Source: a virus
Lineage: Duplodnaviria > Caudoviricetes
Virus record (IMG/VR): IMGVR_UViG_3300036801_000157
Coordinates: 1-62,439 of that record
DNA length: 62,439 nt
Strand: one strand, 5' to 3'
Both the position numbers and the translations under genes were made by a program. The notes under the pieces were generated by a model. It worked only from the letters and a program-made list of their open reading frames with translations, ran no database searches and was not told where the DNA came from. The first letter of the stretch is position 1. Every line of letters starts with the position of its first letter. Positions 4,112 to 9,716 of the stretch are shown here, in pieces.

Positions 4112-4621
4112 GTGGCCAACGACGAGGTCCAGCTCGCTTTGATCGCCGAGGCCGCGCCGCTCCGGGTGGCCGCCAAGCCATTCGTCGTCTTCGAGATTGC
4201 CGGCGAGCCGAAGGCCTGGGGCCGGCCGGGCGCAACCATTCGTTGGGCTAGTGGTCGACCGTTCATCCACTGGTATGTATCGGCGCCAGAGGCCGCCTAC
4301 AGGACCGCAGTAGCTTGGTGCGCCAAGAGTGCCATGAAGGGCCGAAAGCCCACCAGCGAGCCCGTGGCGCTGCTGGCGCATGCCTTCGTTGGCATTCCTC
4401 CAAGCTGGCATTGGCTCACCAAGCAAAAAGCGCGTTCTGGCGCGCTGTTGCCGACCGGAAAACCAGACCACGACAATTTTCTGAAACTTCTCTGCGATGC
4501 CTTGCGCGGAATTGTTTGGCTCGATGATGCCGCCGTCGTCGATGGCCGATGCATTAAACGATTCAGCGATCGACCAGCACTTAGATGCGAGGTCAGAGAA
4601 TTCACTTCGTCGCTAAAATGA
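4112..4621 (+). CDS. rusA: RusA family Holliday junction resolvase
   Basis: GEPKAWGRP, KPDHDNFLKLLCDAL, VWLDDAAVV motifs; probable GTG start. Confidence 0.9.
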   Translation: MANDEVQLALIAEAAPLRVAAKPFVVFEIAGEPKAWGRPGATIRWASGRPFIHWYVSAPEAAYRTAVAWCAKSAMKGRKPTSEPVALLAHAFVGIPPSWHWLTKQKARSGALLPTGKPDHDNFLKLLCDALRGIVWLDDAAVVDGRCIKRFSDRPALRCEVREFTSSLK

Positions 4622-4653
4622 AAACGGGCCGCGTTTGGATCGCGACCCGCTTC
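4621..4653 (-). terminator. Hairpin terminator closing array 1 (possibly bidirectional with rusA)
   Basis: GCGGGTCGCG-loop-CGCGGCCCGT followed by TTTT on the minus strand. Confidence 0.6.
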
Positions 4654-4660
4654 ATTCATT

Positions 4661-5806
4661 ACTGCCTTGCGTTGCCCAGCCTTTCCGGACCGGACCACGC
4701 CAAGCCTCACCCGATCACATCTCGCCACAACCGGACAGACCGCGCCTGCCGAACCAAGCCTAGCCACGCCATGTCGCATCCCGCCCCACTACGCCATGTC
4801 GCACCCCGCCACGCCTGCCAAGCCTGATCAAGCCTGTTCGAATCGAGTCGAGACATGCCATATCCCCGCCGCGCCTGCCTTCCATGCCAAATTTAACGCT
4901 GCCGAACGGACCTCGCCATATCGCGCCTGCCTTCCATGCCGCGCCCAATTCGACCCAACCACACCGGAACCTGTCGCACCCGACCATGTTTAGCCGAGCC
5001 GCGCCTGCCTGACCCAGCCTCTGCTCGCCGAACCCGGTCTAGGCTAGTGTTGCCACGCCTGCCATACCGACCGGAACTTATCTTGTCGCGCCCAGCCAAT
5101 CCCCGTCCCGTCTCGCCATGCCTGCCACGCCATGCCTTGCCTCACCCGACCGCACCGGGCCGTACCCTGTCCCACCGAACCATGCCGCACCGAACCATGC
5201 CGCGCCTTGCCGGACCCAACCGCGCCTGCCTCGCCACGCCCCGCCTGACCGTATTCAGCCCAGACGAACCTTACCCGACCCGACCACGCGCGCCGCGCCT
5301 GCCTCGCCCTACCTTGCCTCGTTACACCCAACCTTGCCAAACCCAATCCCACCTCGCCATTCCTGCCACGCTTGCCGGGCCTATCCTCGACCGACCTAGC
5401 CTTGTATCGCCAAGCTATATCAAGCCCCGCCTGCCAGACCTCGCCATGCCACGCCGGACCTTGTCTTACCTAGTTCCACCCCACCTCGCCTCGCCACGAT
5501 GCGACGCGCCATACCGCTCCTGCCATGCATGTCCATGCCTCGCCTCACGGCGCCCAGCCGGACCTCACCTCATCGGGACTTGCCCCGCCTGCCTTCCTTG
5601 CCTTGCCATGCCTTATTGCACCCGGCCCAGACACGCCCCATCTCGACTTACCGATCCTGCCATGCCCAGCCCAGCCTCACCTTTCCAGACCATGCCGTGC
5701 CACGCCCCACCTTGACTATCCGTGCAAGACCAAGCCCCGCCTGCCATAGATCACCGCGCCCGCGATTGCGCCGAGCGTTGCGCTGCCAATCCGCACCGTG
5801 CCTGCC
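4661..5806 (-). ncRNA. Array 1: about 15-16 GGCAGG-delimited units of GGY-NN pentamers (putative gapped guide RNAs)
   Basis: On + strand CCTGCC delimiters end at 4750, 4819, 4879, 4931, 5009, 5063, 5126, 5230, 5303, 5367, 5435, 5524, 5593, 5661, 5745, 5806; between them a 5-nt NN-RCC period; ORFs across it are low-complexity shadows. Confidence 0.9.
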
Positions 5807-5860
5807 GAGCTTTTTCCGCTTCATAGATGCGGTGGCCCACGCGAGGAGCGCCTCGCGCCG
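5796..5860 (-). promoter_or_regulatory. Conserved structured leader of array 1
   Basis: 51/65 ungapped identity by hand to 7682-7746; CCGC-loop-GCGG hairpin. Confidence 0.75.
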
Positions 5861-5866
5861 CGGAAT

Positions 5867-6352
5867 TTATGCAGCGAGTCGTTGCTCCAAATCGATCAGT
5901 TCTTGAAGCATCCGCTGCAATAAACCAGACAAACCTGGATGTCTCGAATCGAGCATATGCGTAACATCACGCGCGCGTTCGATCGAACTCTTACAACGCA
6001 TAACTTCAGCCAGCACAATGCGTTCAGCCGCGCTGCGATTGATTGATGTGGCTGTGATCGGAACATGGCCGGCTTCGTTGTCGCGACGATCCGGATTTGA
6101 GACGTAATACGGCGAAACTATTCGCATCGATTCGTGAACGACTGTAACTGTTATGAATCGAATTAGTTCACCAGCCCGATCGAGCCGTTGCTTGTGCGCC
6201 GCCTTTCGGTCATCCCAAATAAATTCTGAATGCAATACATGCCGCGCTGGACGAGCAGCGCGGACGATGTCCTCTCGCTTCAGCACGCCGCCGTTCGCCT
6301 CGCGGATTTGCTCCAGCGCGTCGCGGATTTGATCATCTCTGCGCGATGCCAT
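5867..6352 (-). CDS. Accessory protein of the RAMP/array system (161 aa)
   Basis: Overlaps the RAMP stop codon (TAATG); GVL..EDIVRAAR...LHSEFIWDD.KAA...RL..A.ELIR motif; lies between RAMP gene and array 1. Confidence 0.8.
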   Translation of the reverse strand: MASRRDDQIRDALEQIREANGGVLKREDIVRAARPARHVLHSEFIWDDRKAAHKQRLDRAGELIRFITVTVVHESMRIVSPYYVSNPDRRDNEAGHVPITATSINRSAAERIVLAEVMRCKSSIERARDVTHMLDSRHPGLSGLLQRMLQELIDLEQRLAA

Positions 6353-7242
6353 TATTCAATCCCCACATATTCTGCCTCGCCCTTGCCATCAAGCTTTTCA
6401 AGAATCACTGGGCCTTTCGGCATCGGCCGACGCTTGCCTTTGCGGTCCACCAGTTCATGATCCTCGGCATCGATAAGCTGGCCAAGCATCTCGCGCCGCG
6501 CGACTTCTTCGGAAAACCAAGTCAGTAGTTCTTCGGTGTTTTCATCGAAAAATCCAGGTGATTTGAACGCCTTGTCCTGCGCCGTGCGCGCTTGGGTCTT
6601 GACGATGCGCTTGAAATCAGCATTATTGGATTCGACGACATCGTAAGCGCCGAATGGTCCGCCTTTCTGGCCACGCCAATCGCCGATGCCGACGATCTTG
6701 CCGGCGGCGCCAAAGAGATTCACGACGGTTCGCTCTGTCAGGATGCCTCGGATGTAGCGAAAGGTGATCGTGCCGCACCACTCCGGAAAGATCGGCCGTG
6801 TGCGAACGTCCGGCGTGCGATTCTGGTCAGAATTGCGCACCATTGCGCAATAAATTTCTGGCGTGCCATATAGGTTTACCTGCAATTCTACGATCTTGGT
6901 GAGCCGCTCGATTTTGGCTTTTGCCGTTCCTGGAATGTCGAGCGCGACCGCCGACAATGCGCCGTGAAATGCGCCGGACGGAACGTGAATGAGCGTCTTC
7001 TCTTTCAGATCGCGGTTGACATAAAGCGCGCCTCTGAACTCAGCAGGCGGATCGTGCTTGAGGCTCTGTTCCAGCCCAGCCCGGTTCTGCCTGATGCTTG
7101 GGAACAGCAATTCCCGCCAAGCCTTTGCGGCAAATCTATTCATGATCATCGGAGACGTGCCGAGGAAGTTCATCGTCACTTCGTCGATCTTGATCTCCTG
7201 GATTTCGAGCTGCGCCTCTTCTTTTTTCCTCTTCGGTGCCAT
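6352..7242 (-). CDS. RAMP/Cas7-like RNA-binding protein (putative Vipr-type effector)
   Basis: N-terminal LGTSPMI strand; IHVPSGAFHGAL (cf. RAMP IP.SS.KGAL); Gly-rich loop GIGDWRGQKGGPFG; flanked by arrays; no cas genes in the window. Confidence 0.8.
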   Translation of the reverse strand: MAPKRKKEEAQLEIQEIKIDEVTMNFLGTSPMIMNRFAAKAWRELLFPSIRQNRAGLEQSLKHDPPAEFRGALYVNRDLKEKTLIHVPSGAFHGALSAVALDIPGTAKAKIERLTKIVELQVNLYGTPEIYCAMVRNSDQNRTPDVRTRPIFPEWCGTITFRYIRGILTERTVVNLFGAAGKIVGIGDWRGQKGGPFGAYDVVESNNADFKRIVKTQARTAQDKAFKSPGFFDENTEELLTWFSEEVARREMLGQLIDAEDHELVDRKGKRRPMPKGPVILEKLDGKGEAEYVGIE

Positions 7243-7282
7243 TTGGTGTTGTCCTTGCTAGACATCGGCCGATTTAGCCGCG

Positions 7283-7318
7283 CGGCCACTATTGCCAAAT
7301 AATCCAGCGTTTGACAAG
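7283..7318 (-). promoter_or_regulatory. Putative sigma70-type promoter for the RAMP operon
   Basis: CTTGTCAA-N14-GGCAA-TAGT-GGCCG, same layout as 15625, 28531 and 40921. Confidence 0.6.
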
Positions 7319-7322
7319 CCAC

Positions 7323-7370
7323 AAAAAAAAAGGCCCGCAGCCGGCGCAAGGATAAACCGGCTACGAGCCC
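7323..7370 (-). terminator. Rho-independent terminator downstream of array 2
   Basis: GGGCTCGTAGCCGG...CCGGCTGCGGGCC stem followed by T9. Confidence 0.85.
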
Positions 7371-7426
7371 TGTGGGCCAAATCCGCGACGGGATCGTGCG
7401 GCTTGGCGGCACCTAAAGTGTTAATA

Positions 7427-7690
7427 CCTTCCAGGTCGGCCTGACCGCGCCTGTCCTAGCCTCACGCGCCCCGCCGCACCGAGACTTACCCAGCGTGCCT
7501 CGCCTGCCAAGCCATGCCGAACCGGACTGTACCCAGCAACACCTGACCACAACATATCACGCCGTGACGAACCCCGCCTGCCTCGCCGCGCCGAACCGAT
7601 CTGTACCTTGTCCTGACGTGCCCAGACGTGCCCGGACATACCAAGCCTGCCCTACAATTCCGAGCAAATGGACGTGCCGCGCCGTGCCTA
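7427..7690 (-). ncRNA. Array 2: 3 full GGY-NN units plus leader-proximal part
   Basis: Delimiters end at 7432 (CCTTCC), 7508, 7582, 7651; 5-nt period; leader 7682-7746. Confidence 0.85.
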
Positions 7691-7755
7691 CCGACCGTTT
7701 ACCGCTTCATAGCTGCGGGCGGCCGCGCGAGAAACGTCCCGCGCCACAGCGTGTG

Positions 7756-8340
7756 TCATACGCCGGAATTTCTTGAATCGTCAAGCAGCGCATTGACGCG
7801 CTCTGACGCTTGCACAGTATCGTCGAACTGTTCAACCCCCCATTTGCCAGCGCCGATCAGTTTCACAACATAACTGCCGTGCGTAATTTCGATATCTTTT
7901 TCTGGCAGCACCAACCAAACACGATCGTGAATTCTAATATGAACCAACAAAATTTCATCGGCAGATCGCACATGCAAGCCACGCAACGACATCGCCTTTA
8001 ATTGTTGATAATATGGCGCATCTTTCCACACATCAGGATAATCAGGATCAACCGTGCACGTCACACATTGGACTCCATTGAAAACACCAAGACTTAAAAT
8101 CATGTGACTCAATAATGGAAACCATTCATGGCCGACTTTCGGGCTCATCAGCCAGCCACATGCATAGGTGCGACATATCTGCGGACGCGCTTCGTAAATT
8201 CCGCAGCCACCGCAGCCAGGCCGACAGTGCTCGCACCAAACGCCTGCCGGCTTGGATAATTCGGCAACAAATAATAATCGGCAGCATTCGGAACACTTGC
8301 CGCAGGATCGTCCTGGCGCGATTGGCGGGCCACCGTGCAT
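7756..8340 (-). CDS. Cys-cluster protein (YkgJ/CxxCxxCC-like)
   Basis: RSCGKCSECC, WCEHC, CGIYEARPQICRTYAC; start set at TGATG overlap. Confidence 0.75.
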   Translation of the reverse strand: MHGGPPIAPGRSCGKCSECCRLLFVAELSKPAGVWCEHCRPGCGGCGIYEARPQICRTYACGWLMSPKVGHEWFPLLSHMILSLGVFNGVQCVTCTVDPDYPDVWKDAPYYQQLKAMSLRGLHVRSADEILLVHIRIHDRVWLVLPEKDIEITHGSYVVKLIGAGKWGVEQFDDTVQASERVNALLDDSRNSGV

Positions 8341-9716
8341 CACGTTGTCCATATTCCAAACCCGACCGGCGCGGGATAAATAAACGGCGTGCCGGATACG
8401 GTGCCGCCGAAATTGCCGACCATCTGATCGTTGATCGCGCCGCTGGCGCCGCCGAAGCAGACCGCAGGCGCCATCGGCGACGACGCCTGGATGACCACAC
8501 CGCCGATGCCAGTGTTCGGATTCTCGGAACCGAGAACAAGCCCGTTCCAATTGCCGCCGTTCTTACGCAGCCACGCTTTGCGCGCGCCGAGATCGATCGC
8601 AAAGCTGATCACATCGCCAGATGTGCACGCGCCGAGCGTCTTGCCGCTATTAGCGCTGTTGGAAAATATATTTCCTGTCGACCTGTAGAGCGCCGTGCAT
8701 TGAATGCCGCCGACCATATTGTTGAAAGAGCCGGTCGACGAAAGTAGTCCTGGACAATCGGATGCGCCATGCGTCACGGCCATCGTGACTTCGAAATAAT
8801 ACTTGCCTGCCGTTTTCTGCGTTGTGCTGATAGCACCGCCATTGGCGACTGTGCTGGTGCGGGTCACCGATAATTTGCTGGCCGACAGCGAGACCGCAGC
8901 CGCCGTGCCGTCGAATGATGCTGGCTGACCACTGACGACGACTGGTATGTAAAATGCTTCCTGGTCGAACATGACATCGATATCGATTATTTGATTGCCG
9001 CCGAACAACGACAGAAGATAGATGGCGTCAGTGTCTGTTGCTAAGCCGGCGAACAATGTCGCGATAACATCGCTTCGTGCAGCATAGATCGCGTCGCTAT
9101 CAGTCACCAACGAGACGCCGAGCACTGTCGCGCTCGTGCGCGCTGGTGGATAAAACACATCCAGATCATTGACGAAAGGCGCAAACAGGAAATTTCGAAA
9201 CACGATCGGCGCGAACACCGAGTCCGATTCCGTGTGCCGGCCTGGCAGCACAGTCAATGGCGTGCTCAATTCCGGCGCAAACACCATTTCGAAATCTCCG
9301 AACAGGCTTGGTCGCACCGATCCAGGGAGCCCGACGACCGCCGAGAATATCGCGTCATCACTATTATATATGTTTGGCCATACGCTGCCAGGTGCCACCA
9401 CTGGCGCGATGGAAGGCAACGACAGAACGTCACCGTCGAAATAGATCATCGGCGTGACGACCTGATCGCCTTTCAGGATTGGCGCAAACACGAAATCGTC
9501 GGTGATCAGGAATCCAATATTCATAGCTTGTGGAATTATGGCGGCAAAAATAGAATCTAATTCGGATACAAATGGCGACGACAACAATTGAGTGACGGCA
9601 TAATCGAACGCAATGAACGGACCCATAATACCGTCGGCGTCATCGTAATAACGCGTTGGACCAATCACACCGCGAGGCGTGAGCGTTCCGATCTGCGCAA
9701 TGATGCCTGAGATCAT
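8340..9716 (-). CDS. Virion protein with D.D..Y.P repeats and C-terminal SPRY/ConA-like domain
   Basis: GKYYFEV, GDVISFAIDL...KAWLRKNG, NFG...F.YPAP.GF. Confidence 0.7.
   Translation of the reverse strand: MISGIIAQIGTLTPRGVIGPTRYYDDADGIMGPFIAFDYAVTQLLSSPFVSELDSIFAAIIPQAMNIGFLITDDFVFAPILKGDQVVTPMIYFDGDVLSLPSIAPVVAPGSVWPNIYNSDDAIFSAVVGLPGSVRPSLFGDFEMVFAPELSTPLTVLPGRHTESDSVFAPIVFRNFLFAPFVNDLDVFYPPARTSATVLGVSLVTDSDAIYAARSDVIATLFAGLATDTDAIYLLSLFGGNQIIDIDVMFDQEAFYIPVVVSGQPASFDGTAAAVSLSASKLSVTRTSTVANGGAISTTQKTAGKYYFEVTMAVTHGASDCPGLLSSTGSFNNMVGGIQCTALYRSTGNIFSNSANSGKTLGACTSGDVISFAIDLGARKAWLRKNGGNWNGLVLGSENPNTGIGGVVIQASSPMAPAVCFGGASGAINDQMVGNFGGTVSGTPFIYPAPVGFGIWTT

Follow-up and report, generated by a model that had tools for sequence, protein, structure and literature searches.

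A phage-borne VIPR array probably ends in a guide against the rusA 3′ end of related phages

The phage sequence IMGVR_UViG_3300036801_000157 (Duplodnaviria; Caudoviricetes), analyzed here over its whole length of 62,439 nucleotides (the window), carries next to the gene rusA an array of short repeat units, the last of which reads like a recoded variant of the end of rusA itself. Why should a repeat unit resemble the gene beside it, and is the resident gene its target? The locus is a VIPR (Viral Interference Programmable Repeat) system of an already described kind, with a Vipr RAMP protein, an accessory gene, and two arrays of guide RNAs (vrRNAs) comprising 15 and three units. With a probability of roughly 80%, the last unit of the longer array is the final guide RNA of this system, targeting rusA of rival phages and sparing the carrier's own.

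VIPR systems have been described only in 2026 (10.64898/2026.04.26.720920, 10.64898/2026.04.26.720927, 10.64898/2026.10.15.759431). According to the available text of the first of these reports, they fall into seven types and consist of the phage-borne protein Vipr, a minimal RAMP with an RRM core, a G-loop, and a thumb, an accessory gene (vap1 to vap6), and vrRNAs of 9–16 YNNGG repeats. The NN pairs recognize double-stranded DNA with one base skipped per pair and without a protospacer-adjacent motif (PAM); the skipped base is mostly at the wobble position, and the targets are on either strand. In this way VIPR silences transcription in competing phages and satellites as well as in other VIPR loci. 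The threshold for natural targets is 80%, and no self-hits are reported in that text (10.64898/2026.04.26.720920). Natural guide–target pairs are documented for a few clades.

The last unit and the rusA of related phages

In a Viterbi parse of the window sequence, the last unit (unit 4750, named, like the others, for its first position on the minus strand) contains one invariant CA pair, then 14 NN pairs (4743 to 4677), and then two AA pairs. The list of pairs given in the initial annotation of the window, GC CT CG GT GA GT CG GA TT GT CC CC AA TG, was reproduced exactly. So was its description of the resident gene, which on translation ends in ALRCEVREFTSSLK and a stop; it shares six of the first nine pairs with the guide, and both arginine codons are AGA, compared with CG in the guide. 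We compared all 9-pair sub-windows of all 18 units with the first two codon positions in the six frames of the window. This yielded 11 matches of at least 7/9, and the sole 8/9 match was that of the last unit to rusA at 4577–4603. The resemblance to the resident rusA alone would not have been significant: compared as plain ungapped nucleotides, the resident site matches at 16/28, and other sites in the window reach 18. In a nucleotide search restricted to the window, the two best matches adjoin the arrays, with scores (14.0 and 12.5) no higher than the maxima obtained by shuffling (11.5–14).

Using the resident RusA as the query, we found 35 RusA family proteins. One of these natural proteins, P0024, encoded on a 920-bp contig, has the C-terminus ALRVEVREFVPPK followed by a stop, which is residue for residue the peptide predicted from the guide: 14/14 decoded positions agree, compared with at most six for shuffled pair orders. 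Judged from the protein sequence alone, the amino acids of P0024 determine between 24 and 28 of the 28 bases in the guide. Under the best-case choice of codons, at least 23 of the 28 bases could be reached by 21 of the 35 proteins, and the resident RusA ranks 35th, with 18/28. Near the bottom of the ranking is also P0002, with 19; since its longest listed contig and that of P0037, the closest homolog of Vipr (85% identical), are both 4,780 bp long, the two may be encoded together.

At the DNA level, the guide computed from the window was compared, at a target period of 3, with both strands of 127 loci (254 strand scans). The rusA 3′ end of the viral contigs L048 and L049 matches 26 of the 28 guide bases (12/14 pairs) with every third base skipped. 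It is followed by the rusA genes of L051 (25/28) and L055 (24/28) and by ten more rusA alleles with 21–22; every other per-strand maximum is at most 19. None of 300 shuffled pair orders scored above 22/28 at any of 4.1 million positions. The skipped base in the L049-type target is codon position 3 of the rusA frame. Hence the guide, which skips the wobble position, reads the final 13 rusA codons plus the stop as found in related VIPR-free phages, and it tolerates synonymous variation among the target alleles. The site at L049:6472 is thus wobble-aligned with a 1-nt skip, and its NN match of 93% over 14 pairs, or 91% (29/32) over the 16 pairs at 6472–6519, lies above the 80% used for natural targets. 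Over the same 16 pairs, the resident rusA matches at 18/32 (56%), or at 16/28 unextended. The initial annotation had proposed that the guide is aimed at rusA of a related phage and spares the carrier, and had named as its refutation the lack of any related allele better than the resident one. Both the alleles of L048/L049 and the last place of the resident among the 35 proteins bear the proposal out.

The same signal appears when arrays of all loci are considered. Among 235 array runs, the last unit on rusA is the top match, and scores of at least 18 occur eight times with real runs and never with reversed-order decoys. For 10-pair windows, the target period of 3 gives 59 matches of at least 17/20, compared with 0, 3, 0, 5, and 0 in shuffles; when the last unit is excluded, eight such matches are left in 1.1 Mb, compared with 4–7 in shuffles. 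Other target spacings were rejected. Periods 2, 4, and 5 give 0, 4, and 0 matches, with 0–2 in shuffles; specifically, the contiguous reading (period 2) produces no match of at least 17/20, with 1–2 in shuffles, and period 6 gives nothing above shuffles.

How is the resident allele spared? Relative to the guide, the end of the resident rusA has Cys in place of Val, Thr-Ser-Ser-Leu in place of Val-Pro-Pro, and one extra codon. In addition, both arginine codons in the guide footprint are changed from CGN to AGA. The resident match is therefore only 56%, and the carrier is spared. A change from CGN to AGR (R, A or G), though synonymous, alters codon position 1, which a guide blind to position 3 alone can still detect. 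Among 14 distinct rusA alleles with available DNA, 12 have CGN at both positions, and AGR at both is found only in the resident gene and in L007. Each of these two genes has 15 arginine codons, three of them AGR, two of which are inside the footprint; a hypergeometric estimate for this placement is about 3% per gene. The GC content of the last 45 nt of the resident rusA is 0.44, compared with 0.51–0.76 in the preceding 45-nt windows and 0.62 at the end of rusA in L049. The resident gene lies 56–170 bp from the guide unit; weapon and immune allele thus stand in close linkage.

According to the available text of two reports, escape from VIPR needs changes at amino-acid-determining positions (10.64898/2026.04.26.720920; 10.64898/2026.10.15.759431). 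The searched text of both contains no mention of escape by CGN to AGA changes, and the words "arginine" and "six-fold" occur 0 times in that of the latter. The allele of L007 (1081–1125), which has no array nearby, carries AGG and AGA at the two footprint arginine codons; its sequence makes it a candidate for an allele that has escaped in a population under targeting.

Vipr, the arrays, and their likeness to known systems

A profile of 28 members of the Vipr family matched the PDB entry 36pp_D, "SUSP1 Vipr protein", with E 1.1e-6. In a Foldseek search with the AlphaFold2 model of the protein (predicted local distance difference test score, pLDDT, 77), the top matches were the Cas7-family RAMPs Csm3, Cas7-11, Cmr4, and type VII Cas7, with 52 matches at E ≤ 1e-3 and 6xn3_F at 2.2e-5. 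The family comprises 696 proteins at E ≤ 1e-5, and none of the 120 listed has a Pfam domain. A Pfam scan of Vipr and of its partner of 161 amino acids (aa) found no domain, and no nuclease domain was recognized in either.

The predicted fold of the 161-aa partner (pLDDT 92) consists of helices, a beta hairpin, and a C-terminal helical hairpin. A homolog of its gene, encoding 150–190 aa, directly follows vipr in 72 of 90 loci. No significant fold match was found by Foldseek, the best being PadR-type winged-helix proteins with E 0.3; VIA-align gave only generic helical hairpins (Z about 7), and a profile search of PDB sequences only designed helical bundles, with E 0.15 or weaker. Scanning viral contigs with the vap-like protein as a single query recovered one locus only. 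A strict detector found GG period-5 arrays downstream of the vipr homolog, on the same strand, in 34 of 88 fetched loci.

In the window, the arrays flank vipr and the vap-like gene on both sides, all on the same strand. The minus strand of 4625–5745 is made up of 15 units, each opening with GGCAGG. Inside every unit of both arrays, the sequence proceeds in 5-nt steps of the form G-G-Y-n-n (Y, C or T), the last two positions being freely variable, and the 18 units have 9–20 variable pairs each. Over the 245 steps of both arrays, the scaffold positions are G in 225 (92%), G in 185 (76%), and C or T in 224 (91%). The full GGY scaffold is present in 161 steps, and non-GGY triplets (GTC, GAT, GAC, and others) are scattered through both arrays; the parse contains only a handful of phase slips. 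The units abut, and the conserved part of each is a start of only ~10 nt (GGCAGGCG.G). An Rfam search gave no match at E ≤ 1. The hairpin that terminates the downstream array overlaps the stop codon of the convergent rusA. Unit 5230 contains an exact 15-nt tandem duplication at 5173–5203, due to which three guide pairs are present twice in one unit. Elsewhere, the 3.2-kb metagenome contig L012 has GG period-5 arrays at 101–421 and 1041–1341 upstream of a rusA homolog at 1715–2119 and on the same strand. No vipr is visible on this fragment, and its sequence may represent a solo-array arrangement.

The locus resembles the described VIPR systems in being a two-gene phage locus with a RAMP-fold protein and GGY/NN pentamer arrays up- and downstream of the genes. 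It also shares with them the 1-nt skip at the wobble position and targets that may lie on either strand and belong to competing phages or to other VIPR loci. The guides of the described systems score low on their own genome; here the last unit does so (56%), and unit 7651 is borderline (81%). According to the available text, type II vrRNAs (the SUSP1 / P. fulva clade) have an invariable structured 3′ tail of ~40 nt, and the Vipr protein is ~20 kDa (10.64898/2026.04.26.720920). Neither feature is seen here, which places the locus in a different type or clade of VIPR. Compared with that of SUSP1, Vipr has a C-terminal extension and is about 90 residues longer, and the abutting units resemble the "staggered" arrays of other VIPR types (10.64898/2026.04.26.720920, available text). 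Further differences from the described systems are the 18 guides, 15 of them in one array, the aim of at least three guides at the two genes flanking the cassette, and the escape of the resident allele through CGN to AGA changes.

With Class 1 CRISPR-Cas systems, in which Cas7/Csm3/Cmr4 filaments form on the crRNA, the locus shares the RAMP fold and presumably the tiling of subunits along a guide RNA with periodically interrupted pairing. Unlike in these systems, there is no repeat-spacer array with contiguous spacers, no further cas genes were noticed among the open reading frames (ORFs) of the window around the locus, and the guide has a period of 5 nt and the target one of 3 nt, where those systems have 6 in both. 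The locus also resembles TnpB/IscB omega-RNA elements, whose guide targets the element-free site, and phage homing endonucleases, whose donor flanks are immune: a guide near the edge of the cassette recognizes the flank of element-free relatives, and the flank of the carrier is diverged. Here, no nuclease was recognized, and the guide does not copy the flank but recodes it with a 5-nt period.

By analogy with the published type II systems, transcription of the array would run along the minus strand, and the transcript would be cleaved into units, along each of which copies of the 296-aa Vipr would polymerize. Vipr would hold each GGY triplet and present the NN pair, and the pairs would base-pair with one strand of double-stranded DNA, every third target base being skipped. 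For the last unit, the paired strand would be the complement of the rusA coding strand, and the bound filament would block transcription. The system would likely serve to hinder related competitor phages during mixed infection or superinfection.

The cassette, its other guides, and rival explanations

In L048/L049, rusA is followed by ~90 bp and a terminator hairpin and then by a homolog of the gene for a Cys-rich protein of 198 aa that lies beyond the upstream array in the window. Since rusA directly precedes this homolog there, window positions 4622–7755 are a 3.1-kb cassette that those phages lack. The records of L049 and L051, which provide the target genomes G001 and G003, are rated 100% complete (82.5 and 71.6 kb). 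A search of these two complete genomes with the Vipr profile found nothing, while the positive controls G000 and G005 (the window and another carrier) gave E about 1e-143; nor do the two target genomes contain period-5 arrays. The 198-aa protein has the motif C-x-x-C-x-x-C-C plus further Cys pairs, and its 37 homologs are all unnamed; no relative was found when it served as the single query in a scan of viral contigs.

When the 18 units were compared with the whole of G001 and G003, only three exceeded their own shuffle maxima: the last unit (0.93; maximum, 0.71), unit 7651 (0.77; maximum, 0.73), and unit 7582 (0.75; maximum, 0.71). The best G001 matches of all three fall within 1760–2171, that is, in rusA and its neighbor gene. 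Units 7651 and 7582, the first and the second of the upstream array, match the 198-aa gene in antisense orientation, and here too the base they skip is the wobble base. In the 198-aa family, unit 7651 matches 11/13 residues at a fixed place, for example, SADDILLVHVRCN in P0161, and unit 7582 matches 11/14, for example, KIGGVQTVTVTVDP in P0183, compared with at most seven in sense-orientation and shuffle controls. No allele of the 198-aa gene matches either unit perfectly. The match of unit 7651 to the resident gene, 81%, is borderline with respect to the 80% threshold, and shuffles of short units reach 0.80–0.85; it could reflect weak autoregulation, or else the guide could be directed at an allele outside the sample.

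Other guides point to genes of VIPR itself. Unit 5745, the first of the downstream array, matches the 161-aa gene at 11/16 residues in a conserved stretch, and its probable targets are rival cassettes. The match of unit 5524 to a conserved motif of Vipr is marginal (10/17; control maximum, 8). In another carrier, a guide at L129:8053–8103 matches the Vipr motif V-R-N-S-D ... T-P-D at L130:7394 and at six other loci, with a score of 19.5 compared with a decoy maximum of 16.

Several observations weigh against the last unit being a working guide of a VIPR system. Most of the units, 13 of the 18, have no target in about 2 Mb of related sequence: at the family level they match neither RusA nor Vipr, Vap, or the 198-aa protein, and they have no match in G001 or G003. 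Vipr is 296 aa long, compared with 202 aa in SUSP1, and the two sequences align over 47 residues only. The units abut without the ~40-nt conserved 3′ pseudoknot tail of type II, so that their maturation may differ. The target is at the extreme 3′ end of rusA, where a block of transcription would cost only the last codons. Finally, the initial annotation had proposed to search related rusA genes for the predicted peptide and a perfect gapped match; the exact peptide exists in P0024, but a perfect 28/28 DNA match was not found among the fetched loci, where the best is 26/28.

These two mismatches, together with the four scaffold triplets of 14 in the last unit that deviate from GGY (GTC, GTT, GAT, and GAT), also fit a decayed terminal repeat that once targeted rusA and is no longer matured, being followed by a terminator instead of another GGCAGG unit; indeed, after the informative pairs the periodicity dissolves into the terminator hairpin. 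Yet non-GGY scaffolds occur throughout both arrays, a partial GGCAG follows the unit at about 4687–4683, and living alleles match it at 91% over 16 pairs, which speaks for selective maintenance; decay is improbable in our view. A chance resemblance of the guide to rusA would agree with the window-only plain-nucleotide matches of all units, which stay within shuffle maxima. It is already refuted, however, by the 26/28 match against a shuffle maximum of 22 in 300 trials, by the exact match of 13 residues plus a stop to the end of a natural protein (P0024), and by the decoy search, which yielded no score of at least 18.

The position of the unit beside rusA, where transcription of the array converges on the rusA stop codon, and the 81% match of unit 7651 to its own neighbor gene might also suggest that the last unit regulates its own rusA or the convergent transcription at the junction. 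We regard this as very improbable, given that the resident match of 56% is far under the 80% threshold of natural targets (10.64898/2026.04.26.720920, available text) and that the resident is the worst of the 35 family members. A different function, beyond mere silencing of rusA, would be that of marking the empty insertion site, so that binding, or cutting by a nuclease, of the flanks of the cassette-free locus in a co-infecting relative promotes copying of the cassette together with its immune flanks, in a homing or drive-like manner. This would account for the discrete 3.1-kb cassette that separates rusA from the 198-aa gene, with the last downstream unit targeting one flank and upstream units 1 and 2 pointing to the other, for the clustering of their best matches in the whole G001 genome, and for the diverged alleles of the resident flanks. 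Still, it is unlikely: no nuclease domain was recognized in Vipr or in the 161-aa partner (for the latter, the fold searches were uninformative), the guides to the 198-aa gene reach only 75–81% on sampled alleles, and the published type II systems, in the available text, silence rather than cut (10.64898/2026.04.26.720920).

We thus retain interference with the rusA of rival phages as the function of the last unit. A wider reading, which we advance tentatively and at less than even odds, is that the whole cassette is a linked weapon-and-immunity module. The guides at its ends would hit the flanking genes of cassette-free relatives, and others would hit the vap and perhaps the vipr of rivals; the flanks of the carrier would be resistant, yielding a drive-like advantage in mixed infections, and six-fold codons would permit synonymous escape. 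If this is true, recombination would rarely separate a guide from its immunity, as the carrier flanks bear the resistant alleles. Moreover, with CGN to AGR as a synonymous route, targeting would not be fully "escape-proof" at Arg, Leu, and Ser codons.

What is new here is a statistically solid guide–target pair from a different VIPR clade, in which Vipr is longer and the units abut without a tail. The sequences show both parties to the conflict, the targeted alleles in complete VIPR-free genomes and the spared, recoded allele in the carrier; guide, target, and immune allele form a natural triplet. There is also a hint that guides prefer targets in the neighborhood of their cassette, which bears on how guides arise, and another that first-position synonymous arginine changes act as escape mutations, which bears on the durability of wobble-skipping recognition.

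Coordinates and other genes of the window

The features of the locus are collected in Table 1.

Table 1. Features of the VIPR cassette and its flanks, in window coordinates
Feature	Position	Strand	Remarks
Resident rusA	4112..4621	+	ORF open from 4070; database protein P0001, 169 aa; Pfam PF05866, E 4.6e-22
Resident counterpart of the guide target	4577..4621	+	Translates as ALRCEVREFTSSLK-stop; two AGA Arg codons
Hairpin and U-run ending minus-strand array transcription	4616..4657	-	Fold -28.6 kcal/mol, z -2.76
Whole VIPR cassette	4622..7755		Insertion relative to L048/L049; tblastx synteny, L048 intergenic sequence
Last vrRNA unit of the downstream array	4667..4750	-	GGCAGG at 4750; 14 informative NN pairs 4743 to 4677; two AA pairs to 4667
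Downstream vrRNA array	4677..5745	-	15 abutting units of 52-104 nt, the last longer; each starts with GGCAGG
Leader of the downstream array	5746..5866	-	Conserved ~70-nt block common to both leaders (alignment)
vap-like accessory gene, 161 aa	5867..6352	-	phrog_15946; model pLDDT 92
Site in the resident vap gene matching the first downstream unit (5745-5662)	6093..6139	+	Antisense, wobble-aligned; 24/32 bases
vipr, Cas7-like RAMP protein, 296 aa	6352..7242	-	Profile match 36pp_D; AlphaFold2 model; 696 homologs
Promoter-like site ahead of vipr	7317-7288	-	Consensus scan only
Terminator-like hairpin with T-run after the upstream array	7350-7334	-	Consensus scan only
Upstream vrRNA array	7440..7651	-	Three units of the G-G-Y-n-n kind; strand shared with the downstream array
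Leader of the upstream array	7652..7755	-	Carries the ~70-nt block found also in the downstream leader
Flanking Cys-rich gene, 198 aa from an internal Met	7756..8352	-	ORF open to 8550; phrog_9155; 37 homologs
Resident site of unit 7651 (guide 7651-7583)	7928..7965	+	Antisense, wobble-aligned; 21/26 = 81%
Resident site of unit 7582	8045..8086	+	Antisense, wobble-aligned; 18/28; L049, 21/28

Two further ORFs of the window lie outside the cassette. The ORF at 613–1368 encodes about seven copies of P-K-R-R-G-R-P-P, encoded by 48-nt tandem repeats at 649–863, which resemble AT-hook DNA-binding repeats. The ORF at 1427–2590 encodes a protein of 387 aa with the motif D-P-P-W, presumably that typical of N6-adenine DNA methyltransferases.

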